Source: Pseudomonadales bacterium | GTDB lineage: Bacteria; Patescibacteriota; Microgenomatia; UBA1400; PJMF01 | Reading direction: 5' to 3' | NCBI GenBank assembly: GCA_020632265.1 | Contig: JACKFW010000001.1 | Location: 401,892 to 465,891, forward strand | Length of the DNA stretch: 64,000 bases | Shown here: positions 30,409 through 59,455 of the stretch, one piece after another | Layout: every line of letters starts with the position of its first letter | How positions within the stretch are numbered: the stretch's first letter is position 1 | Program-made: the position numbers and the translations under genes | The notes under the pieces: generated by a model | The model's database searches: none | The model's input: only the letters and a program-made list of their open reading frames with translations | Told to the model about the DNA's origin: nothing

Positions 30409-30489
30409 AATTTACATCTTAATAGTATTAACTTTACTTATATGGCAATTTTACAATATAAAACTGGATATCCCAATTACAAAACATGC

Positions 30490-30950
30490 TCTGCCTACAG
30501 TGCTACCAATGCTACCAGCGCCAGATAACAATCAATCCTTCTGGACCCTGCAAACATGGTAAGACTGGCAACAAAAAAGCCCCATCCATAAGATGAGGCC
30601 TTCATTAGCGTTTTTATAAAAAGTACTTACTATTACAGTCCAACGCTGTCAGCACCGTAAGCAGCTTGTTCAGTTGTGAAGCCTTCAAACTCTAGTTGTT
30701 TTATAAGACCATCTCTTGAGAAACCTGACAAGTCTTGATAGCTCTTAGCCTTTTTGGCAGCCTGTTCATTCCAATCTGGACTAATTTTATCTACTGCATA
30801 GGTAGCATCTTCTGTTGAGAATTTTTCAAATTCGAGTTGCTTAATTAGGCCACTTCTTGAAAACCCTGTCATGCTAAGGTAAGAATTTGCTTTTCTAACA
30901 GCATTCTTCTGTGCTGTAGTTTCATTGGAAGTTTCCTCTACTTCGGCTGC
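30490..30950. repeat. segmental duplication copy 2 (3' part of Ltp gene plus 150 bp downstream)
   Basis: Partner of 18774..19236. Confidence 0.85.
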
Positions 30951-31100
30951 TTCCTTAGTGTCACCTTTTTCCATTACTTCTGCCGATGGAGCTGAAGTAT
31001 CAGATTTAGGAGTGTCATCACCTGAGCCTGCGATGGCACCAATAACAAAGAGTACTACTAAGGCAATAGCACCCCATTTAAGTAATTTTTTCATATTCAT
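30633..31100 (-). CDS. Ltp-family surface lipoprotein (phage superinfection-exclusion-like)
   Basis: Signal/anchor MNMKKLLKWGAIALVVLFVIGAIAG plus two Ltp repeats (SYLSMTGFSRSGLIKQLEFEKFSTEDATYAVD / SYQDLSGFSRDGLIKQLEFEGFTTEQAAYGAD). Confidence 0.65.
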   Translation of the reverse strand: MNMKKLLKWGAIALVVLFVIGAIAGSGDDTPKSDTSAPSAEVMEKGDTKEAAEVEETSNETTAQKNAVRKANSYLSMTGFSRSGLIKQLEFEKFSTEDATYAVDKISPDWNEQAAKKAKSYQDLSGFSRDGLIKQLEFEGFTTEQAAYGADSVGL

Positions 31101-31161
31101 CCTTTATTTGGTATTTCTATCTGGGTGGTTCCAATATTATCACAATCTTTCCATATATGGA

Positions 31162-31437
31162 ATGGCTAAATATGGAAAGCACAACCAAAATAAAGATGTG
31201 CCAATAAGTACCAAAAATGACCAGTACCTGCCATATCGTGAGAAGCTTGGTGAAAGAATCAAGGACCTCAGAAAGAAGCGTGGACACACTCAGGAAAGCT
31301 TTGCTCTTGATGTAGTTAAGATGAACGTGTCTTATCTGGCAAAAATTGAAAATGGTTACGTCAACACATCGGTAAACTACCTTATCCGCATCGCCAAGGG
31401 CCTGAATGTGAAGGTCCGTGACTTGGTTGAGTTCTAA
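31162..31437 (+). CDS. XRE-family HTH transcriptional regulator (cI-like)
   Basis: LGERIKDLRKKRGHTQESFA...ISYLAKIENGY...LIRIAKGLNVKVRDL; track ORF 30925 start runs antisense into ltp, so trimmed to MAKYG. Confidence 0.7.
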   Translation: MAKYGKHNQNKDVPISTKNDQYLPYREKLGERIKDLRKKRGHTQESFALDVVKMNVSYLAKIENGYVNTSVNYLIRIAKGLNVKVRDLVEF

Positions 31438-31511
31438 TTTCCCTAAAATTTCACGAAGAGATCTTTTATAATCAAGGTAGATTACCATTACTACCAAAGA
31501 TTGAAATTACT

Positions 31512-32687
31512 ATGCCAAAATTAGTGAAACTGCGTCAGATACGCAAAGTGGAAGAAGAAAAAATCCTTAAAGAGGATGGAAAAAAGAAAACTGATTTCAA
31601 GTCATACAAAGAATATCGTGATTACATTAAAAAAAGATTTAAAGAAAAAAACATAAGAATTGATGCCGAAGAAGTATTTACATCCTCAGAAATAAGTGAA
31701 TTTCTCGGAGTTGTTTCTTCGATACAAAACGTTATAAAAACCTTTCAACCCTACTTTGTAGGGCTACAAACATCGAATTTAATCATCAAGCACCCTTTCG
31801 CATCTCTCATTGAACCTGTTGAACAACTCCAAAAAAATCTTTTGATTTCAAAAGTTAAGATCACTGATTTTATGTCTACGATTCGAGTAGCTCATGAGGC
31901 ATTCTTAGATCTAGCTGCTAGATTTAGTGAAATTGCTGAAAGCTACAATCGTTCATTTCAAATGATTAGTGACGTGTTTACATTCAATGCAAATGCTATC
32001 AAAAGATTATTCGTATTTATGGAAGATCAATCGAGTAAAAGATGGAGTTTTGACTTTATTGTGCCTGTTATTCGTTTCCCTTTACTAGAGAGTAAAAATC
32101 TTGGATTACCCAGCCAAAAAACTGACGATCAACTTGAGGAATATCAACAAAGAGGAATTTTTGGGTTCTATCATCAGTCACTACATATAGATAAGCAAGA
32201 AGATGAGGCACTTGTTATCACTGAGAGGAACACTATTGATGATTCACACCTCATCGAAGAAGCGAGCCATGAGCCAGATATCATTGATGCCTCTATCATT
32301 CCTTATGCAGATAATGGTCCTCTGAATACAACTCTATCTGTAAAATCAGACGGAGAAAATCATTACATCTATGTTAGTGGCATTGGTCGATCAAAAACGA
32401 TAGAAGGTAACCCAACTTGGCTAAAAGTATTGATGGGTTACGAGAAAAACCTTGGCATAATGAGAAAAAAGGATATTGTAACTATATGGAATCAGGCTAA
32501 TAAAAACAGCTGGAAAAATACTCCCGACCCCAAAAAAGAAGACTATATTCCGACTATTCACAGGCTGGTTAGAGATAATGTAGCCAAATATTTTGGCCAA
32601 AACTATCGCTGCATCAATTTCAAGAGATCTAAAAGCCAAAACTTTCCAAATTCATATCAAATGGTAGTTCAGTTTAGGAAAAACTGA
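31512..32687 (+). CDS. hypothetical protein
   Basis: 391-aa ORF downstream of the XRE gene. Confidence 0.45.
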   Translation: MPKLVKLRQIRKVEEEKILKEDGKKKTDFKSYKEYRDYIKKRFKEKNIRIDAEEVFTSSEISEFLGVVSSIQNVIKTFQPYFVGLQTSNLIIKHPFASLIEPVEQLQKNLLISKVKITDFMSTIRVAHEAFLDLAARFSEIAESYNRSFQMISDVFTFNANAIKRLFVFMEDQSSKRWSFDFIVPVIRFPLLESKNLGLPSQKTDDQLEEYQQRGIFGFYHQSLHIDKQEDEALVITERNTIDDSHLIEEASHEPDIIDASIIPYADNGPLNTTLSVKSDGENHYIYVSGIGRSKTIEGNPTWLKVLMGYEKNLGIMRKKDIVTIWNQANKNSWKNTPDPKKEDYIPTIHRLVRDNVAKYFGQNYRCINFKRSKSQNFPNSYQMVVQFRKN

Positions 32688-32846
32688 ACTCCAATATCTT
32701 TCCTCTGAAAAGATACTGATTTCTTGATATTTTAAATACAAATCATTTTTTATTCCAGACGAGAAGTTCAGTTTTTTCAATGGAGTATTTATACGAAGTT
32801 CAGTGATTATTTGATTTCATAGTGTCTGTACCAAAAAAAGGACACT

Positions 32847-33098
32847 ATGGATAATTACAATTCAAATACACAACAATTTTCTTCTTACGACCTCGGCCTT
32901 GCCGCATCTTTAGTATGCAGCGGCTTTCCTGTCGATTTCTTAGATAAATCAAATCCTCGAAAAGTTGAGTTCTATTTTCAGCGAGCCGATGGCTTGGATC
33001 AAGCCATCCAAATGTATTGGGCTAATCAGTTGCAAGTTCCCGCTCTGTCCTACTTCAATGCCCTGAAAATGCTCAAAAACAGGATATATAGCGAGTAA
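32847..33098 (+). CDS. small conserved protein (paralog of 54918..55166)
   Basis: 83 aa; shares LALAA...GF...YF.ALK.LK.RIY with the equivalent gene upstream of the second primase. Confidence 0.5.
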   Translation: MDNYNSNTQQFSSYDLGLAASLVCSGFPVDFLDKSNPRKVEFYFQRADGLDQAIQMYWANQLQVPALSYFNALKMLKNRIYSE

Positions 33099-33116
33099 CC
33101 ATGCGGAGAAATAAAG

Positions 33117-33302
33117 ATGAATATTACAAAAGACAAGTCCCCATCTCTCCAAACTGAACCTATTGCAGGTAGCTTTTATTCTTTGGCCCAGCTCCTTCAA
33201 GGATTTGCTGAACGACACAACCTTGGTCAACTCTTGGATGAAATGTCACCTGATGAAGCTGTCGATCACGTTCTAAAAAAGAGAAAGGAGAAAAATATGT
33301 AA
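33117..33302 (+). CDS. hypothetical small protein
   Basis: 61-aa ORF. Confidence 0.3.
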   Translation: MNITKDKSPSLQTEPIAGSFYSLAQLLQGFAERHNLGQLLDEMSPDEAVDHVLKKRKEKNM

Positions 33303-33353
33303 GTCTCAACTGCATCAACCCAAACCCAATTACAAATTACACAAAGGAAAAAT

Positions 33354-33740
33354 ATGTCATCAAAAAACATGACGCTAACAGTAAAAACAACAAGTGCTCC
33401 TGAACCAATACCAACAGGCGTATATCAGGCAAAGCTATCAGATCTTGAAAAGAGTGAGGGTGATTTTGGTCCCTATCTTAAACTCACGTTTCTCATTACT
33501 GACGGTGAGCACAAGGATACCGAGAGGACCACCATCGCCAGTATGAAGCTGAGCACAGGTGCTAAAAATACCAAGCTCTACGACATTGTAGCCGCACTTA
33601 TGGGCAAGTCACCTGAAACAAGCACTGAGATTGACCTAGGTGCTTTGGTAGGTAAACCCTGCCAGATACTTGTAAAAGATAAGCCTGGTGATAAAGATGG
33701 CTGGCAAATTATTTCAGAAGTAATGCCAGCGAGTAAATAA
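33354..33740 (+). CDS. hypothetical protein
   Basis: 128-aa ORF with a good RBS just upstream of the primase. Confidence 0.45.
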   Translation: MSSKNMTLTVKTTSAPEPIPTGVYQAKLSDLEKSEGDFGPYLKLTFLITDGEHKDTERTTIASMKLSTGAKNTKLYDIVAALMGKSPETSTEIDLGALVGKPCQILVKDKPGDKDGWQIISEVMPASK

Positions 33741-33755
33741 AACGAAAGCAGGAGG

Positions 33756-36101
33756 GTGTGTCTATTAGGATGCACCCTCCCACAGATTGATATGCCTACT
33801 ATAACAAACCGCACACCAGCAAACAATCAAGAATGGGAAGAGCTTGGTGCATACTACTTGAGCCTTGGTTGGTCCATTATTCCTGTCACGAGAGATAAGA
33901 AACCGTTGGTTAAGTGGAAGAATTTTCAAACCCAAAAGCCAACTACAGAACAAGTTGGCGAATGGGCTTCCAACTCAAAGATAGCTGGTTATGCCCTTGT
34001 CACAGGTTCAATCTCTGGTGTCGTAGTCCTTGATCTTGATGAGGGTTCTGAGTTCGATACCTCTACTTTACCTGCTACACCTTTCTCCCAAACTGGCTCT
34101 GGTGGCCGACATTATTTTTTCAAGTCACCAGAAAAACCTATTAAAAATGCTGCTGGTTTTGTAAAAAATACTGACTTTAGAGGTGAGGGTGGTTACGCCA
34201 TTTTGCCACCCAGCAAACATCCTTCTGGAAATCAATACTTTTGGCTCAGCAGTCCAGAGGATACCAAGCTGGCTGAGATGCCTGGCAGTCTTATTGACTC
34301 AATCAATGGTAACCAACAGCTAATGCTCAGCGTAAAAAGCGATGAAAATGTCTTTGAAGGTGTAGAAAAGTCTACCCGTAATCACTCGGCTACTCAGGTG
34401 GCAGGATCACTTCTGAGTCGTTACCCAAAAGACGAATGGGGAGCAGTTGTTTGGCCTTTACTGCAAGGCTGGAACACACAAAACAAACCGCCTCTTTCAA
34501 CAACCGAGCTAAGAGCTGTATTTGACTCAATTGCTGAGCGTGAACAAGGACAGCCAGATCAAGATGACGGAGGCTCTAATCGACCTAGCCAAGCCAAACT
34601 ATTGGTTGAGATGGTTCTGAGCAGTAGTATCAAACTTTTTACTAATCAGTTCCACGAACCAGTCCTCACTTCCCCTGAAACTGGATTCTTAACCTTCAAG
34701 ATTAGTTCATCAGCTACAAAGCAACTTCTTTTCAAGATGTTCTGGGACAGTGAAGGCAAACCCCCTAGCTCCGAGGCAGTGAATAATGCTCTTACTACGT
34801 TGCAAGGGATTGCCACCTATGACCGAGATAAAATCACTGTTTTTAATCGAGTAGGTAGACATAAAAACACTATCTACTATGACATTGGAGATGGCACTCA
34901 TGTGGTAGTCATCGACAAGGATGGTTGGAGCATTGATAGCAGCTGCCCTGTCTACTTCAACCGTTTCTCACATCAAAAGCCACAAATATTGCCAAAGCGT
35001 GGTGGCAATTTGGAAGAGATCCTTGCTTTCATGAATGTTCAGGACCAACAGCAAAAGTTACTAATCCTAACCTTCTTAGTCGTTAGCTTAATTCCAGATA
35101 TTCCCCGAGCAATGTTAGTACTTCATGGTGATCAGGGTTCAGCAAAATCAAGTTTGCTCCGTATTCTTAGAGAAATGATTGATCCCAGCCAAGTGCCACT
35201 TCTTACTCCACCAGACTCTATACGTGAACTGGTCCAATTTGCCAGTCATCACTACGCTGTCTTTTTGGACAACCTTTCAACGCTTTCAGTGTCATTGTCT
35301 GATGCCCTTTGCCGCCTGATAACTGGTGATGGGTTTACTAAAAGACAACTATTTACTGATGATGAAGACGTACTCTATGCCTACAAGCGAGTAGCTGGCC
35401 TTTGCGGTATCAACCAAGTTGCAACAAAAGCCGATCTTCTTGACCGAAGTATCATCGTACCTTTGGAGCGAATACCTGATGGGGATAGACGTGAAGAGAA
35501 GAACCTGTGGCAACGTTTCAAAACAGACAAAGCTCTTATTCTTGGAGCCTTATTTGATGCCGTAGCTGCCACTCTCCGCACTGTCCATGACATTGAACTT
35601 ACTACCAAACCTCGTATGGCCGATTACTTCAAATACGCCACTGCTGCGGCAATACATCTGGGCTACACCGAACAGGATCTTTCCGATGCCTTTAATCAAA
35701 ACGTTAAGCAACAAAATGAAGAAGCCATAGACTCTTCGCCCGTTGCTCAAACAATTATGGAGTTCATGAGGAATAAATCAAACCAAGAACTACGCAGTTC
35801 AGATCTTTACAAAGAACTTTTTGAAATAGCTGAAAACCTCAAAATCAAACAAGGCTTTCCCAAATCACCTACGTGGCTGTGGCGAAAAATCAAAGATGTC
35901 CGTCCTAATTTGATGGCCTATGGCCTCAATGTCACCAAAGAAAAAATGGAGGATGGCACTTACATAAGAATCATAAAAACTGCCACCACTGCTTCCAGCA
36001 CATCAGCACCAGACAGCTCTGGGCCTGAAAGCACTGGTAACACTGACAACAAAACCGTAGAAAACATGACCGAGGAGGAGATCAAGGAGGCACTCTTCTA
36101 A
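33756..36101 (+). CDS. bifunctional Prim-Pol DNA primase/polymerase fused to D5/P4-type helicase-like NTPase
   Basis: Prim-Pol motifs GVVVLDLDEG (DxD), SQTGSGGRHYFF, GGYAILPPSKHPSGNQYFW; C-terminal Walker A VLHGDQGSAKSSLL; AGGAGG RBS before the GTG start. Confidence 0.8.
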   Translation: MCLLGCTLPQIDMPTITNRTPANNQEWEELGAYYLSLGWSIIPVTRDKKPLVKWKNFQTQKPTTEQVGEWASNSKIAGYALVTGSISGVVVLDLDEGSEFDTSTLPATPFSQTGSGGRHYFFKSPEKPIKNAAGFVKNTDFRGEGGYAILPPSKHPSGNQYFWLSSPEDTKLAEMPGSLIDSINGNQQLMLSVKSDENVFEGVEKSTRNHSATQVAGSLLSRYPKDEWGAVVWPLLQGWNTQNKPPLSTTELRAVFDSIAEREQGQPDQDDGGSNRPSQAKLLVEMVLSSSIKLFTNQFHEPVLTSPETGFLTFKISSSATKQLLFKMFWDSEGKPPSSEAVNNALTTLQGIATYDRDKITVFNRVGRHKNTIYYDIGDGTHVVVIDKDGWSIDSSCPVYFNRFSHQKPQILPKRGGNLEEILAFMNVQDQQQKLLILTFLVVSLIPDIPRAMLVLHGDQGSAKSSLLRILREMIDPSQVPLLTPPDSIRELVQFASHHYAVFLDNLSTLSVSLSDALCRLITGDGFTKRQLFTDDEDVLYAYKRVAGLCGINQVATKADLLDRSIIVPLERIPDGDRREEKNLWQRFKTDKALILGALFDAVAATLRTVHDIELTTKPRMADYFKYATAAAIHLGYTEQDLSDAFNQNVKQQNEEAIDSSPVAQTIMEFMRNKSNQELRSSDLYKELFEIAENLKIKQGFPKSPTWLWRKIKDVRPNLMAYGLNVTKEKMEDGTYIRIIKTATTASSTSAPDSSGPESTGNTDNKTVENMTEEEIKEALF

Positions 36102-36146
36102 TCTCCCCTCCACCCATAACTGTTACTAATAAACCAGGAGAAAACT

Positions 36147-36530
36147 ATGCAATGCACTTATATCAAAGCTAATAATCAATCTTGTAAGGCTCATGCCATG
36201 AAAGGAAGTGAGTTCTGCTTTACTCATAATCCCGAAACTCGTGATGAACACGCCCAAGCTGTAGTGCTTGGTGGACTCAACTCATCCAGAAAAGACAGCA
36301 TTGAGTTACCTGCAATTGATGTTCGCCAACCTGATGGTGTAGTCCAACTTCTGGAAGAAACAATCAACGGCGTTCGTGATGGCAGTATTCCACCTAAAGT
36401 AGCCAGCACTGTTGGTTACTTGGCTGGGCACTTACTCAAAGCCATTGAATCAGCAGACCTCGATAAACGATTAGAAGTGATTGAGCGAGTGATTTTGGAA
36501 CGTAAATCCATAATGAAAGGTTACAAATGA
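36147..36530 (+). CDS. hypothetical protein with Cys-rich N-terminus
   Basis: CTYIKANNQSCKAHAMKGSEFCFTH may be a zinc-binding segment. Confidence 0.45.
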   Translation: MQCTYIKANNQSCKAHAMKGSEFCFTHNPETRDEHAQAVVLGGLNSSRKDSIELPAIDVRQPDGVVQLLEETINGVRDGSIPPKVASTVGYLAGHLLKAIESADLDKRLEVIERVILERKSIMKGYK

Positions 36531-38035
36531 AAAACTTTTCTATCCAAGCACTAGCTGGTGTTTTAACTGCCAAAGAACGAGCCAAAATCATTGCGGAATA
36601 CATCGTTAAAGGTGATGAAACTGGCGAAGACTTAGGCCATGAAATCAACAAGATAAAAATGAACATGAGCAGCAATCAGATAACCGAATTCAACTTCTAC
36701 ATGGATATTATTCAAACCGTTCATGTCGTCATGGAGGCTGACTTTCAAACTATGTACTTGCGATTTTTTCTCTACTCTCAGCAACTCGAAAAAATATATC
36801 AACAATGGTCCATGAGTATTTACAGCCACTTCACTCACCGAGATCTGAACTGGTTACCTAAAATTGTGACTCAACAGGGTTATCAAGAATTGTACGAAGA
36901 ACAAAAAGCCCAAGAACTGTCAGCTGTTTTCTCTTTAGAAACTTTGGCTGAGCATGAGGCACTCGCCAAACTCCAATCAGAAGGTTGGTGGAAAGACACC
37001 GATCTATTTATGGTCCACAAACAGCTGGTAGCTGATGCCAATAAAACCGAGGACCAACTGATAGATGAATATCTTGACCACGTTGAAGAGCGAGTAGCTA
37101 CCTACCTCGAATATAAAGATAAGAAGAATGCTTTTCTACACCTTTATCAGGAATATGCCGAGTATGAAGGCAAGAGTCGTGACGAAATGAGAGAAATGGT
37201 GACAACTAAGTACGACTTTACTCCCACCGATCCAGCAGATACTCAAAAATGGCTTGGTGAGATTGAAAATCAAAAACAACGGCTCCAAAAACTGATTAAC
37301 GAAGGAGTGCTCGAAGCCGCTACAGTTGGCAGTGAGTTTGGTTTTTACGGGACCTCCGAAGATACAGGTAGGCCAGGAATCACGGCTGTTAGTTGGTATA
37401 ACTACTTAGAAAAATACGATACAGACTTCAACGATTTTATTGATGATGTTGATAACTTCATTTATTTTTGCCACAACGATGTAGCCATTATTCAAACCAA
37501 ACAAAGCCAGGAAAAGAAAACTGATGAGCTTACCGCTAATATCATCAAGAAACGATTGCTTGAACACTTAGATCACTTCAACGCCATTACTTACGAACCA
37601 ATAAGCGGTGATAAAAAACTACACCTAGAAGCCAAGACTTTAGAACGAATTAAAGAACTGCTTTTCTCTATATCAGTAATCAAATTAAGACTCCTTGCTT
37701 ATATCAAAGTGATTGAGGCAGTCGAGGACTTTTACTTTGATGGCACTCAGATTGTGTCTCGTAATACTTGGTATGCCAAAGCAGCTCAAGAACACTATGA
37801 TTTTATGCTCCAACAGCATCAACAGTATCTTGATTTTGTCTACAACTATTTTGGCAACTTTACTATTGGCTCAGTGAACCCTATTTTTGACTGCCACGAT
37901 GACCTTCAATTTATAGAACCAAACAAGGAAGAAATTCAAAGAGTTACTAAGGAGCAGATGAGCTTTATGCTGGAAAAAGCGGTAAAGGGCAGCCACTACC
38001 GTCCACCGCGAACTCCATTTGACGAAAGAGTATGA
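36527..38035 (+). CDS. hypothetical protein
   Basis: 502-aa ORF overlapping the upstream gene by 4 nt. Confidence 0.5.
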   Translation: MKNFSIQALAGVLTAKERAKIIAEYIVKGDETGEDLGHEINKIKMNMSSNQITEFNFYMDIIQTVHVVMEADFQTMYLRFFLYSQQLEKIYQQWSMSIYSHFTHRDLNWLPKIVTQQGYQELYEEQKAQELSAVFSLETLAEHEALAKLQSEGWWKDTDLFMVHKQLVADANKTEDQLIDEYLDHVEERVATYLEYKDKKNAFLHLYQEYAEYEGKSRDEMREMVTTKYDFTPTDPADTQKWLGEIENQKQRLQKLINEGVLEAATVGSEFGFYGTSEDTGRPGITAVSWYNYLEKYDTDFNDFIDDVDNFIYFCHNDVAIIQTKQSQEKKTDELTANIIKKRLLEHLDHFNAITYEPISGDKKLHLEAKTLERIKELLFSISVIKLRLLAYIKVIEAVEDFYFDGTQIVSRNTWYAKAAQEHYDFMLQQHQQYLDFVYNYFGNFTIGSVNPIFDCHDDLQFIEPNKEEIQRVTKEQMSFMLEKAVKGSHYRPPRTPFDERV

Positions 38036-38054
38036 AATCAGGGAAAATAGCTAT

Positions 38055-38141
38055 GCACTCAGCTTATAGAAATGGCTTTTTTTAATGGCCGTCTTGGACA
38101 ATTGGAAGTCATTTCTAGTTGAGTGCACCAGGGCGGCCATT
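38055..38141 (+). promoter_or_regulatory. conserved interleaved inverted-repeat element upstream of recombinase A (candidate att/res site or 5'-UTR structure)
   Basis: GCACTCAG(38055-62) / TGAGTGC(38120-26) interleaved with AATGGCCG(38084-91) / CGGCCATT(38134-41); homologous block upstream of recombinase B with compensatory changes. Confidence 0.55.
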
Positions 38142-38152
38142 TAAGTATAAGG

Positions 38153-39772: not shown

Positions 39773-39780
39773 AATAGCCT

Positions 39781-39938
39781 CCATTACTTCCACTGCTTCC
39801 ATTTTTTGTGTAACGATTACACGCTTTGTTGTGGCACACCACCCCCACCCCACGGGAGGCTCAATAAAACCCTTCCAGGAGGTAGATGGAACTGCGGGCG
39901 AGTAAAGAGATAGTATGGTCTAGACAGAGCCACCAATT
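39781..39938. other. GC-rich noncoding block with hairpins (candidate element junction)
   Basis: ~50% GC versus ~33% background; GTGTAACGATTACAC hairpin; CCCCACGGGAGGCTC is an inverted near-match of GAGCCTCCCACGG at 53758. Confidence 0.3.
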
Positions 39939-41735: not shown

Positions 41736-41744
41736 TGTGACTTC

Positions 41745-43250: not shown

Positions 43251-43267
43251 ATTTTTGTTTACAATTT

Positions 43268-49102: not shown

Positions 49103-49103
49103 A

Positions 49104-49283: not shown

Positions 49284-49433
49284 AACTTACATTTACTTGT
49301 AATTAATTGCACATATATTTTAGCTCTTTAACATGCGGCTTGTCACAGGCAAAACTTAGAATATTTGACTTGTGTAGTGATTACACGCACACACTTTCAA
49401 GAAAATATTATTTTTTTATTTATTTCACTAAGA

Positions 49434-50333: not shown

Positions 50334-50344
50334 ATACCAATTTT

Positions 50345-51671: not shown

Positions 51672-52027
51672 TTAAGGGCAGGCAACGAGGCGTATTCTGT
51701 TTCCAACCTCTACTGTATTTTACATTCTTTACCTAAAAAGTTATAAACCAATTTACTACCTCGAGTGGCTCTTGTTTAATAAAATCAATAAACAAGTCAT
51801 TTGATCAACACTTTTTCCAATAGAATTTGCTGTTAATTTTCCTCTAGAAATTGATTTTGTGGTAATTGCAACTCGAGTTAATTGGCAGTTATTTACTTAC
51901 AGTCACTAAAATAGTTGTTTTTAATATTTTTATCTCAAGTACAGCTGAAGTATCGGACAGTAAGCCAGAGGTTAACTACACGATGAGCTACTATTATGAG
52001 CCGACAGACAAAAACAAAAAAGGCGCT

Positions 52028-52666
52028 TTATTTCACTAAACCAGAGTAAACATTTTCAGTACATAGCTTGCGTAGCAACGGCATCGTGTCATCAGTACTT
52101 TCTACTAGGTCATAGTAAATACGTCCATAACCAGCCGAATAATCCTCTTCTACAATTTCCGCAACAGTTCTCTCCTCTTTATATCCATTTGATTGATAAC
52201 CGTTTTCGTCAGTGGGGATTTTAGGGTTAAATACTAAAATATTTTTATCTATAGAAAAACCAAAACCAGTGATTGTTTGAGAAGGATAATATGGAACATA
52301 ATCAATAATGTCTCCCGTCAAAACATCTACAATTGCGTATCCTATACAATTTGTGCCACAACCCCAAGTTGCCATAGTGTAGTGCCCAGCAAAGTTAGCA
52401 CCTTCTGCAACTTGATTAGTGATGGTCGTGCGAAATAATTTTGCATCAGGATTGGACTCAAAATTAACTAGCTTTGGTTCACCTTCAAAAATTTCAATAT
52501 TAGTTTTCTCGTTTTGCTCTACTGCCACATCACAAACTGTTTTTGAATATCGATTTAATTCATGGCTTTCTTGCTGGCTATTTTTAAAAAGGAATATCCC
52601 TGAAAACACCAAGATTATCAGTAAAATTACGTTGATTGCCAAGAACAATTTGTTTAATTTATTCAT
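52028..52666 (-). CDS. secreted/membrane-anchored hypothetical protein
   Basis: N-terminal hydrophobic anchor LFLAINVILLIILVFSGIFLF. Confidence 0.45.
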   Translation of the reverse strand: MNKLNKLFLAINVILLIILVFSGIFLFKNSQQESHELNRYSKTVCDVAVEQNEKTNIEIFEGEPKLVNFESNPDAKLFRTTITNQVAEGANFAGHYTMATWGCGTNCIGYAIVDVLTGDIIDYVPYYPSQTITGFGFSIDKNILVFNPKIPTDENGYQSNGYKEERTVAEIVEEDYSAGYGRIYYDLVESTDDTMPLLRKLCTENVYSGLVK

Positions 52667-52673
52667 ACTTGAT

Positions 52674-53117
52674 TTAGTTTCCAGCAGCTAGAGCAAGAGA
52701 AAATACTAACATTAATAAACCAAAAATTATCCAGGAAATCAAATTTCGTTTTTTACCTTTTTCGTCAATTTTTACATTATCCCCAACTTGCTTCCAACCT
52801 TTACTAAGAAGGCTGTTGTAATTATCTTTATTGATTGTAAATGCAGAATAAATCATGACTAAATTACCAATTATAGATTGGTTAATTTCCAGTCCAGCCA
52901 TCGCAAACAAAATATCTTGAATGATGAACAAAAAAAACATGATGACAAATAACATCGAGCCTTTCTTCCACATCCCCCATCCAATATAAAGTAGCGGACC
53001 CAAGATCAATCCACCCAAACTAAATCCACTAGTACGGACTTCTTTAGTTTTATTTTTATCATCTGGATGTTGAAGTTTTACATATTTTTTCATATTTTCC
53101 TTTCCTAGTATTGGCAA
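52674..53117 (-). CDS. membrane protein
   Basis: Four hydrophobic segments. Confidence 0.45.
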   Translation of the reverse strand: MPILGKENMKKYVKLQHPDDKNKTKEVRTSGFSLGGLILGPLLYIGWGMWKKGSMLFVIMFFLFIIQDILFAMAGLEINQSIIGNLVMIYSAFTINKDNYNSLLSKGWKQVGDNVKIDEKGKKRNLISWIIFGLLMLVFSLALAAGN

Positions 53118-53374
53118 AATGTTTCAATACCATCCAAGTCATAGTAAGCATCTTGATAATAACCACTCTCTAAATTTGACTTAGCAGAATCAATAGCATA
53201 TTGAAATTCCTTTTTGCATCTCTCTAAGTCTGATATTTCGTACTCCAAATCTGAAACTTGTCTTTTCAAACTAGAGACTTCACTTTTATAAGAATTGTTT
53301 CTAGAGCCACTCCCTAAATTTATTAATATAAAAATGAAGATGATAGCCCCACCAATGATTAGAGAATTTTTCAT
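53105..53374 (-). CDS. small secreted coiled-coil protein
   Basis: Signal-like IIGGAIIFIFILINLGSGS then helical charged region. Confidence 0.4.
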   Translation of the reverse strand: MKNSLIIGGAIIFIFILINLGSGSRNNSYKSEVSSLKRQVSDLEYEISDLERCKKEFQYAIDSAKSNLESGYYQDAYYDLDGIETFCQY

Positions 53375-53682
53375 GATTTCTTCCCTGGTATTTGATTAGC
53401 TGAATAGAAATATAAAAATGAAGTGATCAAATCAATACCAATCCAAGTACTTTTGTCCAAATAAACAGGAAATATAGGATTGAAAAGCAATGCAGCAATA
53501 CCAAGCAAAGAAGCTAAGATACTTTTCTCAACTTCGTAAAAGCGATAGGCTGCATATAAGCCACTTACAAAAATTACTAATCGAAGAAATTGATAGTAAC
53601 CATATGGTAAATTGCTAATAGCAAGAACTAGCATTAAACCAGAGACAATTAAAATTGTTTTCAAGATTTGGTTATTTTTCAT
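53371..53682 (-). CDS. small membrane protein
   Basis: 103 aa with three TM helices; overlaps the previous gene by 4 nt. Confidence 0.4.
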   Translation of the reverse strand: MKNNQILKTILIVSGLMLVLAISNLPYGYYQFLRLVIFVSGLYAAYRFYEVEKSILASLLGIAALLFNPIFPVYLDKSTWIGIDLITSFLYFYSANQIPGKKS

Positions 53683-53749
53683 AAACTGGTTTTTAACCTA
53701 CTAACTATTTTTAGTCAAAATCATTCACATCTGTTTGAGGAAAGCTTTT

Positions 53750-53870
53750 AGACGCAAAAAGCCTCCCACGGTCGGTGACTTTCGTCACCCGCATCTCTTT
53801 CGAGATACGACGGTTCAACGTAACCCCATGAGAGGCTTGCTACCGTTGAACCGATTTTTCACCATGCCCA
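53750..53870. other. GC-rich structured noncoding segment (candidate ncRNA or recombination site)
   Basis: Hairpins GGTGAC-TTTC-GTCACC and ATCTC-TTTC-GAGAT; 10-bp stem CGGTTCAACG/CGTTGAACCG interleaved with AAGCCTC/GAGGCTT; ~50% GC. Confidence 0.4.
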
Positions 53871-53963
53871 TTAAGACTAATGAGTTTAGGCGATTTGTAG
53901 TGCCATTATTATATCAAAGTAATTTACTTTCCCATAGAAGCTCGGGGTATAATTAGCACTAAC

Positions 53964-54821
53964 ATGAATATCAATATAAATAGTAATGGCTATCTGGAAG
54001 AGTCAAATCACGAGTTGTCTTTATTAAAGCAGGTTTTACTGAAACAACCTCTCGTTCTTGAGGATATTGAAAATATAAAACAGGGTTACCAACTTTTAGC
54101 CAAAGTAGTCGCCATTTCTAAAAGAAATGTCCTTGATGTTATTGATCCTAAACTTAACAATTGCTATCAAGAATTGGTAAAAATTGTTAAATCTTCTTAC
54201 GAAAACTTCGAACAAATTATCAATGAAAGATATAACACCGATTCTGCCAAAAGTTTACCTGATTTTTACAGCAATCCGCACATTTTCGGCGATTATCCAT
54301 ACTTCCCATTTACTAGTATTTTCGAAAAACCGCTTGATAGTTGGGATGAAGTCGAAAATAAGCTCAATGAGTCTTTGAACAGAATAACTCAAGCCTACAC
54401 TCTACTTGATATTAAAAACAACAAGACAAACCATGCTAGCTTCTTTAATGAGGTTGAAAAATATTTAGCCAATTTCTTTAAATTTACTTGCGGGGATTTA
54501 GTTTTAGATTTAGAAATACCAGCTCTAATTTACAAAAATGGCACACCACTGCCAATTCAATTAAAGAGAAAAGAAATTCAATTTTTAATCCTTCTGCTAA
54601 GAAACAAAGGTAATTTAGTGAGCTACAAAACGGTGGCTGAGACTCTAGATACAAACTACTATCATCCTGGCTTAGACAATTTAGCTACTGGAGAGAAGCT
54701 GAGACTGTTGAAGAACGATTTGGGGAAAATGCTGCTGCAGGCTGGCATGAGCAGAGATACTTTCAAACAAATGATTACCACCCACGCTACTAAAGGCTAT
54801 GTGCTGAACTGCACAACCTAA
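53964..54821 (+). CDS. OmpR/CadC-type winged-helix DNA-binding protein without receiver domain
   Basis: C-terminus LPIQLKRKEIQFLILLLRNKGNLVSYKTVAETL...KLRLLKNDLGKML...THATKGYVLNC fits the trans_reg_C pattern. Confidence 0.45.
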   Translation: MNININSNGYLEESNHELSLLKQVLLKQPLVLEDIENIKQGYQLLAKVVAISKRNVLDVIDPKLNNCYQELVKIVKSSYENFEQIINERYNTDSAKSLPDFYSNPHIFGDYPYFPFTSIFEKPLDSWDEVENKLNESLNRITQAYTLLDIKNNKTNHASFFNEVEKYLANFFKFTCGDLVLDLEIPALIYKNGTPLPIQLKRKEIQFLILLLRNKGNLVSYKTVAETLDTNYYHPGLDNLATGEKLRLLKNDLGKMLLQAGMSRDTFKQMITTHATKGYVLNCTT

Positions 54822-54917
54822 TTTTTTCCTTTTTTCCTACATTTTTCCTACATTGCGGTTAATGTTGGTTTTTGGTCATAAGACGTATCCTTCAATTATT
54901 GAGGATAAAAAAATCTT

Positions 54918-55166
54918 ATGGATCAAAATACGCAGACAACTACTTCACTAGCACTTGCGGCTTATTTAGCAACATTGGGCTTTCTTTGTGCAAGCGTTAC
55001 ACCGACTGAAGTTAATAACCAACTAGCTTTTCATTTTGATATTTCCGAGGAGGACTTCATGTCTCACTCGGATATTTTTTGGTCAAGAAAAACGAAAATT
55101 GATGGGCTCACTTATTTTGAAGCATTAAAAGTATTAAAAAGTAGGATTTATCAATACAAAAATTAA
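54918..55166 (+). CDS. small conserved protein (paralog of 32847..33098)
   Basis: 82 aa in the same position and with the same motifs as the element A gene. Confidence 0.5.
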   Translation: MDQNTQTTTSLALAAYLATLGFLCASVTPTEVNNQLAFHFDISEEDFMSHSDIFWSRKTKIDGLTYFEALKVLKSRIYQYKN

Positions 55167-55176
55167 GAAAGGATTT

Positions 55177-57432
55177 ATGAAAAAACAACTACTTTCCACA
55201 GGGAGACAGTACATTAGTAAAGGTTTCCCAATTTTCCCAGTCAATTTATGGTGGGATCAAGAAAAACAAAAATGGATGAAGCAACCACTTATTAAAAAGT
55301 GGGAACAACAATCAGTTCCAACTGAAGAAGACTTACGGAAGTGGAGTAACATTTCGAAATTTAATGCTTGGGGTTTAGTTACTGGCAAAAAATCTGGTGT
55401 TGTTGTTTTGGACATTGATAATCCTGATTTAATAAAAGAATTTAATCTCCCCCACACACCCAGGGTTCGTTCAATCTCTGGAGGTTATCATTATTACTTA
55501 GAATATCCCAAAGATGCTGAGGTTAAAAGCCATAAAGGTATCTTGCCTAAAGTCGACATTCGTGCTGATAAAGGGTTCATTGTCATTCCGCCATCAGCAG
55601 CTGACCAAGAACATGCATACACTTGGGAAGTGTCACTTGATGCAGCAGTGCTTGCAAGTATTCCAACTTGGTTAATGGATTTGTTGGAAGTTACTCAATC
55701 ACCAGAATATATCCAAAATAATTTTGACTCTGATAAACCTATAGAGCCAGGAGAACGGCATAAAACTGCTTTACAGGCAATCGGATACTTTTCCCTGAAA
55801 TATAGAGATGAAGACCTGGAAAAAATTTGGCAACGCCTTAATGACTGGATGAAAAGTAAATTCACTATCCAATTTGGACAAGAAGAAATGACTTGGCTAA
55901 AAAAGTCTTTTGACCAATACGCTCCAAGAAATATTACTAACACTAGTGGTAGTAGCTCATCAGAAACAGTTTCAAGTCGAGTAATCAAGCTCATTATTGA
56001 CGACAAGTTTGATCTTTTTAAAACTGAAGATAAAACCACATACATTGGTCTCCCAGATAAACCTCTTACTGTTCTTCCAACTGATAGTGAAGAATTTTTC
56101 GAAGTCGTTTCTCTAAGTTACTACAACGAATTTGGAATACCGCTCATGAAAGATGCTTTAAAGAGGGTTATGCCAACTATACGAGCTTTAATCAACAAAC
56201 AAGGAGAGAAAATAGAGTTGTTCAACCGTGTGGCAGCAAGGGGCGGAATTTTCTTTGATCTGTTTGAAGATGATGTGTTTGTACGTGTTGATATAGAAGG
56301 CGTTAGTTTAGTTGGCGCCAACGTCATTAAGGAAGCGGGACTGCGGTTTGTTCGCTACCCTCATCAAAGAAAACAAGTTAAACCAGACCTAAGTGCATCA
56401 ATTCAAGATGCCTATCGCCTGTTTGATTTCCTAGCAATTAAAGATGAGGAGCAACAAAAATTGTTGTTATGTCACCTAGCAGCTTGTCTTGTTCCCAACA
56501 TTGCTCGGTGCATGCTGGTGCTGCATGGGTCAAGAGGTTCTGCAAAATCAACAACACTAAAATTTGTTCGGTCACTCATTGATCCTGCAAAACCCATGTT
56601 GGTTCGCATACCAGAAAAAGACAATGATCTTCAAATATTTCTAGAAAAAAGTTATTTTTGTTGCTTTGACAATGTTTCAGGCATTTCAAAGCAAGTATCT
56701 GACTCACTGGCAATGATGATCACTGGCGGTGGAACTATCAGTCGCAAACTTTATTCTGATAAAGAAATTGTTACCACTGACCTAAAAAGTTGTTTAGCGC
56801 TGAATGGTATCAATCTAGCCATCCGTGAAGCAGACCTACTAGAAAGATCATTAATTATCGAAACTAAAAGACTAACTGAAGTTAAGTCAGAAGAAGAAAT
56901 TACCAACGAATTTGAAGAGGCTAAACCGATTATTTTTGGTGGCTTGTTAGCTCTTCTCTCCGCATCAATAAAAAGTGTTATTTCTGGGGAAGCAGCTGGC
57001 TACATACCGACTTCCTTCAGAATGGCTGATTATTACCGTTTTGCCTCAGGCGCAGCATGGGGACTGGGAATATCAGATCATGAATTTGATGCGATGTTTC
57101 AAAGAAATGTTAATAGGCAGAATGAAGCCGCAATTGAAAGCTCACCACTTGCTCAAGTTGTAGTCGATTATATGGCTGATAAAGCAGTCCCTGTAGAAAT
57201 GCGCTCCTCAGAACTTTATACATCATTGACTGAAAGAGCTAAGGAAATGGGCGTCGACAAGGGTATGCCCAGAGGCGCTCACATGCTTTGGAAACGACTC
57301 AATCCTCTTCGCATTGATTTGGAAGCAGTAGGTATTGTTGTAGAGCGTGTTGACCGAAATGATGCCTCATACATTCGTGTAGAAAACAAAAAGGTAGCTG
57401 TGGCAGCTGAGGAAGCTGCAAATAACTTCTAA
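55177..57432 (+). CDS. bifunctional Prim-Pol DNA primase/polymerase fused to helicase-like NTPase
   Basis: GVVVLDIDNPD, SISGGYHYYLEYP, GFIVIPPSAADQEHAYTW; Walker A VLHGSRGSAKSTTL; paralog of 33756..36101. Confidence 0.8.
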   Translation: MKKQLLSTGRQYISKGFPIFPVNLWWDQEKQKWMKQPLIKKWEQQSVPTEEDLRKWSNISKFNAWGLVTGKKSGVVVLDIDNPDLIKEFNLPHTPRVRSISGGYHYYLEYPKDAEVKSHKGILPKVDIRADKGFIVIPPSAADQEHAYTWEVSLDAAVLASIPTWLMDLLEVTQSPEYIQNNFDSDKPIEPGERHKTALQAIGYFSLKYRDEDLEKIWQRLNDWMKSKFTIQFGQEEMTWLKKSFDQYAPRNITNTSGSSSSETVSSRVIKLIIDDKFDLFKTEDKTTYIGLPDKPLTVLPTDSEEFFEVVSLSYYNEFGIPLMKDALKRVMPTIRALINKQGEKIELFNRVAARGGIFFDLFEDDVFVRVDIEGVSLVGANVIKEAGLRFVRYPHQRKQVKPDLSASIQDAYRLFDFLAIKDEEQQKLLLCHLAACLVPNIARCMLVLHGSRGSAKSTTLKFVRSLIDPAKPMLVRIPEKDNDLQIFLEKSYFCCFDNVSGISKQVSDSLAMMITGGGTISRKLYSDKEIVTTDLKSCLALNGINLAIREADLLERSLIIETKRLTEVKSEEEITNEFEEAKPIIFGGLLALLSASIKSVISGEAAGYIPTSFRMADYYRFASGAAWGLGISDHEFDAMFQRNVNRQNEAAIESSPLAQVVVDYMADKAVPVEMRSSELYTSLTERAKEMGVDKGMPRGAHMLWKRLNPLRIDLEAVGIVVERVDRNDASYIRVENKKVAVAAEEAANNF

Positions 57433-57441
57433 ACAACCACT

Positions 57442-57612
57442 ATGCTCTCTCAGAAAGCAATCATCGAGTTTCAAAAAATCTACCAAGAAGAACTTGGCAC
57501 TGAAATCTCTATTGAAGAAGCGTCTGAGAGAGCTGAAAAATTTCTTCGCTTATTCAAAATGATTTACCAACCAATCCCAGATAAATGGTTGGAGGAAAAG
57601 ACCGATAAATAG
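57442..57612 (+). CDS. possible small ORF (56 aa), not in ORF track
   Basis: MLSQKAIIEFQKIYQEELGTEISIEEASERAEKFLRLFKMIYQPIPDKWLEEKTDK starts 10 nt after the primase stop; weak RBS. Confidence 0.3.
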   Translation: MLSQKAIIEFQKIYQEELGTEISIEEASERAEKFLRLFKMIYQPIPDKWLEEKTDK

Positions 57613-57670
57613 ACATAAATACATTAAATAAAAGTTTGTGATTTTGGAGGAAAAATAGTATAATAACAGT

Positions 57671-57750
57671 GCACTCAGATACCCTATCGGGCTTTTTAAT
57701 GCCCTCATTGGACAGATCCTGATAGGTCTGAGTGCACCAGTGGGGGCATT
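57671..57750 (+). promoter_or_regulatory. conserved interleaved inverted-repeat element upstream of recombinase B
   Basis: GCACTCAG(57671-78) / CTGAGTGCACCA(57728-39) interleaved with AATGCCC(57698-704) / GGGCATT(57744-50); CCTATC/GATAGG pair; homologous to 38055..38141. Confidence 0.55.
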
Positions 57751-57754
57751 AATT

Positions 57755-59455
57755 ATGCAAATGAAATACTTTATCTACTGCCGAAAAAGCTCTGAGCAAG
57801 AGGATAGGCAAATTCTTTCTTTACCTGCACAGGCTGCCGAATTACAAAACTTAGCTGAAAAAAACAACCTTACTGTTGTTGATATTTTCCAAGAATCTAA
57901 AAGTGCTCACACTGCAGGAAGATCAAAGTTTGATGTAATGATTAAACGTTTTGAGGCAGGTGAAGCCAATGGCATTATTGTTTGGGACGAGTCACGAATT
58001 GCCAGAAACTCACTTGATGGTGGTAAGGTTATCTACATGATGGATTTAGGGCAAATTGTCGAAATTCGAAAGCCTGGAAAAACATATAGAAATACCCCTG
58101 ATGACAAGAGTTGGTTACAAATGTGTTTCATGATGAGTAAAAAAGAGTCTGATGATAAAGGTGTAAACGTTAGGCGTGGTTTACGTACCAAAGCTGAAAA
58201 AGGATGGTATCCATCCTCTTGGACTAAGCCTGGTTATATGTGGGACAACGCTGAACGTGGCAATAAATCATTGCTGATTGATCCAATTAGGTTTCGACTC
58301 ATAAAACAATGTTGGGAGTTAATGCTAACTGGTGCTTACACCACTCCACAAATACTACAAAAATTAAATGATGAATGGGGCTATCGTAGTCCTATTCGCA
58401 AATCCCTTGGTGGCAAACCTATGCATCGAAGCCAGCTTTATAACGTATTTAGTGACCCCTTTTATTATGGTTGGTATGAGTATAAAAACTCAAGCGGTGA
58501 GACTGTCTGGAAAAATGGCAATCACAAACCAATGATAACTGAAGAAGAGTTTAACCGAGTGCAAATGCTTTTAGGAAGAGGTAGTAAGAAGCGAATGAGG
58601 AAGCAAAACTTTCCACTTACTGGGATTATCCGCTGTGGGGAATGTAACGCCATGGTAACTGCAGAAGAAAAATGGCAAACAATTTGTACTAATTGCAAAC
58701 ATAAGTTCTCTTCTCTCAATAAGGATGAGTGCCCTAAATGTCACTTAAAAATTGAGGAAATGGTTAATCCCACTGTACTTCACTACATCTACTATCACTG
58801 TACCAAACGTAAAAACGCAAACTGCACTCAAAAAAGCATATTGGCTGATGATTTGATCAAACAAGTTGATAAAAAGCTTAAGAAGGTAAAGGTGTCTCCA
58901 CGCTTTGTTAAATGGGCTCTCAAGTATCTGGGATCATTGCATGATGAAGAGTCAATTGCTCATACCGCAACAATCACTCAACTACAAAATAGCTATAACG
59001 ACTGTGTGAAACGAATGGATAATTTAGTCAAGTTAAAGATTTCGCCTGCTAACTCTGATGGTTCCCTTCTATCTGATGATGAGTTTTTAGCTCAAAAAAC
59101 AGTTCTTGTTTCAGAAAAAACCAAGCTTGAGGAGAGCTTGAATAACCAAGGGCAACGGGTTAACAACTGGCTTGAAACAGTTGAAGAGCACTTTAACTTT
59201 GCCCTACACGCACGCCACCGCTTTGAGGTGGGCAGTCCCGATGAGAAAAGGGAGATTTTAGTCACAATTGGTTCGAACCTAACACTTCTTGATAAGGTTC
59301 TCGGTCTAGACTTAGAAAATGAGTATGCTTTTCTAGAATATGTGAAGGAAATTGAACCGTCTGTTTCAGAAGAGTTCGAACATGAAAAAAGCGTTGATAT
59401 ATCGATGGATTTAGAGTCGCTATGGGCTCAAAATCGGTTGGTGCTCCCCCGGTAG
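57755..59455 (+). CDS. large serine recombinase (integrase)
   Basis: IYCRKSSEQ catalytic Ser region, DESRIARN, zinc ribbons CGECNAM...CTNCKH / CPKCH...YYHCTKRKNANC; stop TAG at 59453-55 inside tRNA-Asn. Confidence 0.85.
   Translation: MQMKYFIYCRKSSEQEDRQILSLPAQAAELQNLAEKNNLTVVDIFQESKSAHTAGRSKFDVMIKRFEAGEANGIIVWDESRIARNSLDGGKVIYMMDLGQIVEIRKPGKTYRNTPDDKSWLQMCFMMSKKESDDKGVNVRRGLRTKAEKGWYPSSWTKPGYMWDNAERGNKSLLIDPIRFRLIKQCWELMLTGAYTTPQILQKLNDEWGYRSPIRKSLGGKPMHRSQLYNVFSDPFYYGWYEYKNSSGETVWKNGNHKPMITEEEFNRVQMLLGRGSKKRMRKQNFPLTGIIRCGECNAMVTAEEKWQTICTNCKHKFSSLNKDECPKCHLKIEEMVNPTVLHYIYYHCTKRKNANCTQKSILADDLIKQVDKKLKKVKVSPRFVKWALKYLGSLHDEESIAHTATITQLQNSYNDCVKRMDNLVKLKISPANSDGSLLSDDEFLAQKTVLVSEKTKLEESLNNQGQRVNNWLETVEEHFNFALHARHRFEVGSPDEKREILVTIGSNLTLLDKVLGLDLENEYAFLEYVKEIEPSVSEEFEHEKSVDISMDLESLWAQNRLVLPR

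Follow-up and report, generated by a model that had tools for sequence, protein, structure and literature searches.

Staphylococcal cassette chromosome (SCC) elements integrate at the very 3′ terminus of a conserved gene, carry cargo, and form tandem composites. Here, we describe a locus of comparable build at a tRNA gene. It lies in a 64,000-nucleotide stretch of contig JACKFW010000001.1 (positions 401,892 to 465,891; “the window” below, with 1-based positions) and holds two related elements in tandem, A and B, each with a primase-polymerase (Prim-Pol) fused to a helicase and each with a large serine recombinase (LSR), B abutting a tRNA-Asn gene. This arrangement, including the old divergence of the two elements, had been read from the letters alone in an earlier note (the original prediction), and profile searches, alignments, and tRNA calls bear it out. 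We consider it very probable that the window holds an accretion island next to the 3′ end of tRNA-Asn, which grew as replicative, cargo-carrying LSR elements integrated one after another, at least twice, in a Pacebacteria/Woesebacteria-like genome of the Patescibacteria.

SCCmec and other SCC elements are likewise LSR-driven and have their own helicase/primase-type replication module, and among the top structural matches of the helicase described here is their Cch helicase (5dgk). The differences are nonetheless clear. The SCC target is the protein gene rlmH, here it is tRNA-Asn; and the helicase is here fused to the Prim-Pol, in a host from the candidate phyla. The NCBIfam models of the SCC recombinases (CcrA/B/C) score 64-93 bits against cut-offs of 700-900, far below what membership would take, and these are not SCC elements.

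Tycheposons are tRNA-anchored, carry cargo and primase/helicase genes, and integrate successively, which pushes older elements inward and leaves degenerate remnants; 910 of 937 use tyrosine recombinases, with ~40-nt attachment sites that leave partial tRNA copies (bioRxiv 10.1101/2020.12.28.424599). The elements described here are also tRNA-anchored, replicative, and stacked in tandem. They differ in having an LSR integrase, attL and attR that share 5 nt, and no partial tRNA, and are not tycheposons. With the large serine integrases of phages (A118/LI, Bxb1, phiC31; PMC3783163), they share the domain set, short attachment sites that lack long repeats, and a 5-bp shift of an outer motif between attP-type and attB-type half-sites. 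The known targets of those integrases are protein genes or intergenic, whereas here the attB half-site would be the T-arm/acceptor end of a tRNA gene and the integrase open reading frame (ORF) crosses the crossover.

The original prediction took it as established that such elements target tRNA genes. This is inaccurate for serine integrases, which according to the Islander paper are not known to choose genes for tRNAs as their sites. We found nothing on serine recombinases at tRNA genes in the literature searched, the coverage of which was incomplete so that a prior description is not excluded, and only one study, on the unrelated topic of inoviruses, mentions serine recombinases beside these bacteria. 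We present the tRNA gene as a new target class for serine integrases, one that a whole serine-integrase family uses here. tRNA genes have been regarded as a preserve of tyrosine integrases; the route here would be another one, with a crossover at the last nucleotides, no need to restore the gene, and an attP arm that mimics the tRNA.

Exact Boundaries of Element B

The contig L092 (Logan SRR28385526_59355) is the B-empty site. It is 100% identical to window positions 34950-39692 and then continues, again at 100% identity, with 59443-59509, the two parts overlapping by the 5 nt GCTCC, and its LSR-A has 513 aa with the family-typical end ETWLPR* (the asterisk marks the stop). As the interval 39693-59447 is precisely what is missing from this otherwise identical contig, B comprises that interval. 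Comparison with a relative lacking one element had been proposed as a way to define the ends, and the junction of 39692 to 59443 in L092 supplies it. The original prediction had confined B to 54918-59455, which proved wrong: B includes the defence island that lies between the core modules of A and B.

The Logan unitig graph (k = 31) bears on the same ends. Unitig SRR12358676_45929 spans exactly 39663-59472, that is, B plus k-1 nucleotides on each side, and a neighbouring unitig starts at 59443; given this k, the graph branches between 39692 and 39693 and between 59442 and 59443. If these branch points are joined via the shared GCTCC, the predicted sequence is gaa acg tgg ctc ccc cgg tag, in other words LSR-A ending in ETWLPR*.

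The ends of a relative of B are found joined to each other. In contig L093, the 3′ end of an LSR that is 83% identical to LSR-B runs directly into a ~93% match of B's left end, and a synthetic attP (window 59300-59442 plus 39688-39850) aligns to this contig without gaps over 290 nt. L094, from a second sample, has the same LSR and the same P′-type tail, and stops 24 nt past the stop codon. The joined ends in L093 could be a circle or a tandem copy. Circular junctions had been suggested as a check on mobility, and it is in these contigs of a relative that the ends-joined junction was seen; together with the empty-site allele, it is direct evidence that B is mobile.

Beyond the tail encoded by the P′ arm lies a non-coding stretch (TAAAATAGCCTCCATTACTTCCACTGCTTCCATTTTTTGTGTAACGATT..; 39773-39837; 2650-2711 in L093) that is ~97% conserved between B and its 83%-identical relative. 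This is more than for the coding DNA beside it, and the stretch may have a role in regulation or as an origin.

Geometry of the Recombination Site

The only sequence common to attL and attR of B is GCTCC (5 nt). The pattern GCTCC-N-TTCGAAC occurs at just two sites in the 64 kb, 39688 and 59443, against 0.03 expected, and the core is separated from TCGAAC by 11 nt in the tRNA arm but by 16 nt in B's left arm. In attB, the zinc-ribbon-domain motif of serine integrase sites sits nearer to the centre than it does in attP, the difference being 5 bp (Rutherford et al., PMC3783163). By this rule, the tRNA T-loop is a good candidate for the zinc-ribbon motif, and B's P′ arm a good candidate for a mimic of the T-loop in attP register. 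At least 14 homologues whose ORF enters a neighbouring element instead of a tRNA show the same attP register; their tails read x-x-x-(D/N/E)-x-(I/V/F/Y)-R-T (GAY NNN NTT CGA ACC), and tRNA-encoded tails P-R-x-D-S-N (GAY TCG AAC). We infer that the 3′ acceptor/T-arm of tRNA-Asn is the chromosomal half-site (B′) used by both A and B.

No tRNA fragment displaced to the far end of the elements was found in the window within 3 mismatches, and neither A nor B is flanked by long direct repeats. That only GCTCC is shared and no tRNA fragment duplicated fits serine-recombinase chemistry, unlike the case of tyrosine-integrase islands. With its many sequence-diverse examples, the family is a natural illustration of the 5-bp attP/attB shift behind serine-integrase directionality.

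The B-empty allele has a further property (window 39668-39714). Its site reads GTTCGG-N14-GC-N14-TCGAAC, the conserved codons for ..VRI.. in LSR-A mirroring the tRNA's T-loop motif with the spacing of an attB. B may find a particularly good target in a site that A occupies, unless the resemblance is a coincidence.

An Integrase Gene That Crosses the Crossover

As predicted, LSR-B stops inside the T-arm of tRNA-Asn: with its TAG (59453-59455) placed in the T-stem's 3′ strand, the gene overlaps the tRNA by 13 nt, and its last codons, CTC CCC CGG TAG, are tRNA sequence. The original prediction assigned the residues ..NRLVLPR to the tRNA, of which only ..(V)LPR* is encoded there. LSR-A has a different fate. 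Its own part ends in ..ISETWL, and B's left end supplies the final 26 codons (39693-39772, RAIDAIRTCVMQENVRFYRLLDAPLS*); its homologues end in TWLP[RDG]. A was there first, and the insertion of B exchanged the natural end ETWLPR* for this tail. Beyond the original prediction, A, too, targeted tRNA-Asn, at the identical 5-nt core.

Likewise, an attP-type LSR-B ends in ..LVL-RAIDAIRTCIMQEDVRFYRLLEAPQS (P0154) and the integrated LSR-B in ..LVLPR. Because the ORF crosses the crossover, the end of the enzyme depends on its context. Outside the DNA motif, the tails differ from one another in both length and sequence and thus give no evidence of protein-level selection; a regulatory role for the context-dependent end is speculation. 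A gene product that changes on integration, attP lying within the gene, has precedents in the SSV-type integrases and in the immunity systems of cluster G mycobacteriophages. Those systems use tyrosine recombinases, whereas here it is the last 2-30 residues of a serine integrase that change.

Proposed Order of Events

On our reading, A (Ltp, XRE, DUF5659, Prim-Pol-SF3 helicase, LSR-A) would have integrated first at tRNA-Asn, and B (19.8 kb) would then have inserted between A and the tRNA, the hybrid site that A had created serving as its attB. Each crossover would fall in the tRNA gene's final five nucleotides, GCTCC, which would leave the tRNA intact and duplicate no fragment of it. The chromosomal half-site would be the acceptor/T-arm, and the P′ arm of the element would present TTCGAAC 5 bp farther from the crossover, a displacement by which LSR zinc-ribbon domains distinguish attP and attB. 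Lying at the very end of its element, the LSR gene would read across the crossover and take its last residues and stop codon from the tRNA if integrated, or else from the element's other end if excised, or from a neighbouring element. After excision, the Prim-Pol/SF3 helicase would presumably replicate the circle autonomously, and the elements would presumably pass between cells.

The tRNA-Asn Site in Relatives

The RpoD encoded next to the tRNA is 76-88% identical to that of metagenome-assembled genomes (MAGs) of the Pacebacteria/Woesebacteria type of Patescibacteria. tRNA-Asn lies directly downstream of rpoD in ~22 genomes of relatives and is the end point of several of their MAG contigs, such breaks being expected of a variable site. 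Seven relatives have a long ORF (481-551 codons; one, L006, clipped by the contig end) convergent with tRNA-Asn and with its stop codon within the tRNA, and five of the seven are 21-31% identical to LSR-A or LSR-B. They terminate in WLPR*, WLPD*, MLPR*, MLPD*, and RLPE*, or read-through forms such as WLPRVDSNRQPCR*; in antisense translation, the acceptor stem gives LP(R/D/G) and the T-arm xDSNxxP. An A-like element with 91-93% DNA identity and SMODS as its leftward cargo occupies the same rpoD-tRNA-Asn site in another Woesebacteria genome (L095). None of the window genes at 1-27 kb was found near rpoD in the relatives except the S51 peptidase gene; the SHMT-like gene (28.6-29.9 kb) is also near rpoD in relatives.

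In one of these relatives, L015 (CAZESB010000016.1, 12641-12912), a ~270-nt group I intron (Rfam 94.8 bits) sits in the anticodon loop of tRNA-Asn, and ARAGORN miscalls the split tRNA as a 94-nt tRNA-His.

A Family of tRNA-Fused Recombinases

Among the candidates scored, LSR-B has 2404 homologues at E≤1e-30, and nearly all of the names given by their sources are Patescibacteria lineages. In the top 120, 84 were automatically classified as stopping in, or reading through, a tRNA in antisense (several unclassified ones do so too), and ~10 carry P′-type tails. The LSR-A homologues behave likewise. Like both LSR genes of the window, most of ~150 homologues cross the crossover and stop inside the antisense tRNA.

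Three B-like elements from other samples (L084-L086) keep the core order of regulator, ~280-aa protein, DUF5659, Prim-Pol-helicase, 55-57-aa ORF, and LSR, and vary in their minus-strand cargo (a giant helicase with DUF2130; copper resistance; an Hsp70/AAA set). The element in L085 ends in tRNA-His. The other two are followed by further elements in tandem: in L084 a second Prim-Pol element, and in L086 a small one (HTH_17, an RrnaAD-type methyltransferase, and a 495-aa LSR), which reaches the edge of the contig and has the end sequence GCTCCCCGGGTAGGATTCGAAC there. Mobile elements of the candidate phyla are barely described, and these move defence systems, metal resistance, and other cargo, stacked at one site. 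Serine integrases are prized in genome engineering, and these LSRs might also serve as a tool, since the main recognition arm appears to be a conserved tRNA end and varied outer arms seem to be tolerated; native landing sites in many organisms could then be on offer.

Weighing the Alternatives

Several other explanations must be considered. If the elements were not integrative plasmids but helper-dependent phage satellites, akin to phage-inducible chromosomal islands (PICIs) or tycheposons, integration would be the same and only the mode of spread would differ. The best structural match of the helicase is the SaPI5 primase-helicase, A carries the divergent XRE repressor and Ltp typical of temperate phages, and a size of 9-20 kb fits; yet Pfam, PHROGs, and NCBIfam detected no terS, capsid, portal, capsid-size redirection, packaging-interference, or helper-interference genes (several ORFs are unannotated, so absence is not proven), and IMG/VR gave no matches. 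We judge this explanation unlikely, though one to be taken seriously. It is highly unlikely that the blocks are immobile remnants with domesticated LSRs, the polymorphism having arisen by microhomology deletion at GCTCC. A may indeed be trapped, its LSR having a foreign C-terminal tail and its attR being destroyed; on the other hand, the join restores the family-typical ETWLPR* end plus an intact tRNA, the reciprocal ends-joined junction occurs at the same nucleotide in a relative, and hundreds of intact homologues sit at tRNA ends.

We find it scarcely credible that B is only the 4.5-kb module (54918-59455) and the defence island host DNA or a separate island. The cargo does lie wholly on the opposite strand and has a lower G+C than the core module, but L092 lacks the whole interval in an identical background, a Logan unitig equals that interval, a minus-strand cargo block of varying content occupies that position in all B-like relatives, and L093 has a conserved left end (39688-39837) that adjoins the LSR end. 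A crossover inside the anticodon loop, with the element restoring the 3′ half of the tRNA as tyrosine-integrase islands do, can practically be dismissed. L015 seemed to hold only the 3′ half of the tRNA beside its LSR; in fact its tRNA is split by the intron mentioned above, and in the window the displaced fragment is missing and attL and attR share only 5 nt.

Some points weigh against the accretion island as we read it. An A-empty allele was not found, nor was A's left end fixed, and no excised circle of the window's own B was found. The joined-ends contigs stem from a relative with 83% identity and may represent tandem copies, and searches of the viral collection IMG/VR with junctions and elements gave no match. 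The crossover dinucleotide within GCTCC cannot be fixed; B's P arm shows no clear mirror of TTCGAAC, and A's candidate left arm no mimic. Finally, no directionality factor and no transfer or packaging gene was identified.

Replication and Recombinase Modules

The Prim-Pol-helicases of A and B are 30% identical over 741 columns (E 2e-101) and the LSRs 24% (E 1e-21); the DUF5659 proteins align only in their C-terminal 26 residues (46%). The first two values agree with the prediction that the modules are old paralogs and not a recent duplication. Profile searches also found the genes of both elements where they had been predicted, including the divergent XRE repressor and Ltp of A and the DUF5659, Prim-Pol, and LSR genes of B, the DUF5659 match of B falling slightly below threshold. 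A protein of 285 aa is present in B as well, but its reading as an OmpR-type winged helix rests on a sub-threshold match to Trans_reg_C (E 0.0087).

The proposed check with domain models supports both domains in both elements. PF09250 (Prim-Pol) matches at 2e-28 (A) and 3e-26 (B), with the motifs VVVLDLDE/VVVLDIDN and GGRHYF/GGYHYY (DxD, sGGxH). The C-terminal half of the protein had been called a Walker-A helicase. It has no sequence-family match in Pfam, NCBIfam, or PDB, and it is the fold that bears the call out: with an AlphaFold model (pLDDT 84, pTM 0.80), Foldseek matched the SaPI5 primase-helicase, ASFV PrimPol, SCCmec Cch, NrS-1, and poxvirus D5/E5, with a probability of 1.00, E values as low as 6e-8, and TM ~0.5. 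As the model resembles SF3 primase-helicases, the reading of this half as a predicted SF3 (D5-like) P-loop helicase holds.

Both LSRs match the resolvase domain PF00239, with the serine motif YARVSTSRQ (A) or YCRKSSEQ (B), as well as PF07508 (recombinase) and PF13408 (zinc ribbon), and LSR-A has coiled-coil-type hits at residues 358-474. They thus carry the large serine recombinase domain set; attP × attB catalysis is predicted, and the products seen are the occupied, empty, and ends-joined junctions. The conserved 56-aa ORF of B is a candidate directionality factor.

Element A and Its Left Flank

The modules of A are as predicted, but the left end at 30490 is not secure, with 30491, 30426, or a position as far left as 18775 as candidates. 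The boundary at 30490 is the start of a 458-nt module whose second copy, found by self-blast, lies at 18775-19230 with 90% identity, and it is also a junction in contig L087. Both Ltp copies have an identical 29-mer at the end of the repeat, so that the L087 junction is possibly a low-k assembly chimera, and we downgraded this contig as evidence for where A begins on the left. The match with L095's A-like element extends 65 nt beyond the end at 30491, to 30426, and halts exactly where the cargo diverges (GNAT in the window, SMODS in L095). Since it ends where the cargo genes differ, the minus-strand genes from GNAT to NUDIX (19.7-30.4 kb), with the AbiV-fused hydrolase among them, may be A's cargo, or else a degraded third element. 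Two further candidates for a left-end signature failed: an LSR 3′-end relic on A's left flank (30409-30492) aligned no better than shuffles, and the tail translated from 30491 (CLQCYQ), which would mark A's attP junction, was not found among LSR-A homologues.

The 65-nt AT-rich piece to the left of the Ltp module (window 30426-30490; L095 2481-2545) is conserved in the two genomes and looks like a shared outward promoter or cargo slot. The two copies of the 458-nt direct repeat (18775-19230 and 30491-30948) bracket an 11.3-kb minus-strand accessory block, and the left copy may be a relic or the left end of a further element.

A metagenome scan with a degenerate four-junction pattern found, beside tRNA-Asn in an unrelated genome (L083, Ga0163150_10001498, 545-646), a 33-codon relic of LSR-A type (..DLVRISETWLPR*) with the rest of the element gone. 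Its differences from LSR-A are synonymous.

Annotated Features

The coordinates of all features are collected in Table 1. The LOOT RNA between the cargo and the core of B was considered as a conserved part of such elements and rejected, being absent from 8 neighbouring loci and 3 B-like elements.

Table 1. Features of elements A and B, their junctions, and the left flank (window positions)
Feature	Position	Strand	Evidence or remark
Second Ltp-end module copy	18775..19230	plus	90% identical; self-blast, Pfam, L087
112-aa Ltp gene in second copy	18915-19253	minus	Pfam
Genes of the 11.3-kb block: NUDIX, zinc-ribbon, AAA, APH, hydrolase-AbiV fusion, S51 peptidase, 2-hydroxyacid dehydrogenase, SHMT-like, GNAT		minus
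Element A, minimum extent	30491..39692	plus	right end certain, left end uncertain
Ltp lipoprotein (A)	30633-31100	minus	Pfam E 1.5e-33
Divergent XRE, HTH_3 (A)	31162-31437		E 2.7e-12
387/391-aa protein (A)	31512-32687
DUF5659 (A)	32847-33098		E 2.6e-9
123/128-aa protein (A)	33354-33740
Prim-Pol + PriCT_1 + helicase, 781 aa (A)	33756-36101		E 2.2e-28
127-aa protein (A)	36147-36530
502-aa protein (A)	36527-38035
LSR-A	38123/38159-39772	plus	Resolvase 7e-26, Recombinase 8e-11, Zn_ribbon_recom 1e-10
Left core GCTCC, attL of B	39688..39692	plus	within LSR-A reading frame
Element B, 19,755 bp	39693..59447	plus	P′ arm, minus-strand cargo, plus-strand core module ending in LSR-B
P′ arm of B, GAGCAATAGACGCTATTCGAACCTGTG	39693..39720	plus	conserved in L093
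Cargo block of B	39939..53682	minus	Pfam
GmrSD (B cargo)	39939-41735	minus	Pfam
DUF2779 (B cargo)	41745-43250	minus	Pfam
Type I restriction-modification hsdR/S/M (B cargo)	43268-49138	minus	Pfam
HTH_17 protein (B cargo), then two further proteins	49104-49283	minus	Pfam
AbiU2 (B cargo)	50973-51671	minus	Pfam
Small membrane proteins, then DUF6804 (end of B cargo)	53371-53682 (DUF6804)	minus	Pfam
LOOT RNA (RF03000)	53774..53892	minus	Rfam 96 bits vs gathering score 46.4; between B cargo and core
285-aa protein (B core)	53964-54821	plus
DUF5659 (B core)	54918-55166	plus	E 2.9e-4, 21.1 bits, just under 23.6 cut-off
Prim-Pol + SF3 helicase (predicted), 751 aa (B core)	55177-57432	plus	E 3.2e-26
Conserved 56-aa ORF (B core)	57442-57612	plus
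LSR-B, 564 aa from ATG	57740/57761-59455	plus	Resolvase 7e-18, Recombinase 2e-7, Zn ribbon 1e-6
Right core GCTCC, attR of B	59443..59447	plus	last 5 nt of tRNA (..GGAGC on other strand); L092 join, Logan ends 59443 and 59472
tRNA-Asn (GTT), intact	59443..59515	minus	ARAGORN; Rfam RF00005, 66 bits
attL junction sequence			GTTCGGATAAGCGAAACGTGGCTCCGAGCAATAGACGC; B left junction
attR junction sequence			..AATCGGTTGGTGCTCCCCCGGTAGG; B right junction
attB junction sequence			..GAAACGTGGCTCCCCCGGTAGG; B-empty
attP junction sequence			..AATCGGTTGGTGCTCCGAGCAATAGACGC; B ends joined

Repeat Units in the Left Part of the Window

At least 12 copies of a ~100-nt unit lie at 3149-16842, all in the same orientation, with weaker copies near 20776-20915 and 23238-23339. 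The unit consists of a hairpin (TATAGGCATAAATAAGCCTATA) followed by AATTTAAAA, GCTCC, CCCGACAGGTTGTTAC, TCGAAC, and TAGGAGGTGGG, and its GCTCC-N16-TCGAAC spacing is that of B's P′ arm. Where this was checked, at genes for an MFS transporter, hydrolases, and an APH-type kinase, it directly adjoins the stop codon of an accessory gene on the minus strand. An integron-like array of cassettes without an LSR could account for the units, which would then be its junctions, either active or relic. The 27-mer/100-nt repeats are absent from the loci of 83 relatives, and a structured RNA was rejected on folding z-scores that were not significant.

We tentatively put forward a wider picture, which we think has a modest chance of being right. 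A large, apparently Patescibacteria-only clade of LSRs would use tRNA 3′ ends as attB, with the near-universal T-loop as the zinc-ribbon-domain motif, copied 5 bp outward in attP, and a C-terminus that switches with integration, and the whole of ~3.1-59.4 kb would be one capture array. If so, the LSRs would tolerate almost any outer arm and each element would recreate a usable site, which amounts to an integron-like but serine-driven capture array that takes in the dozen or so short cassettes of 3.1-17 kb bounded by the ~100-nt units.

The units are not all of one form. The copies at 3149 and 10101 have the right half only, and variants at 8950, 11180, and 16720 add an inverted arm that resembles a tRNA end.

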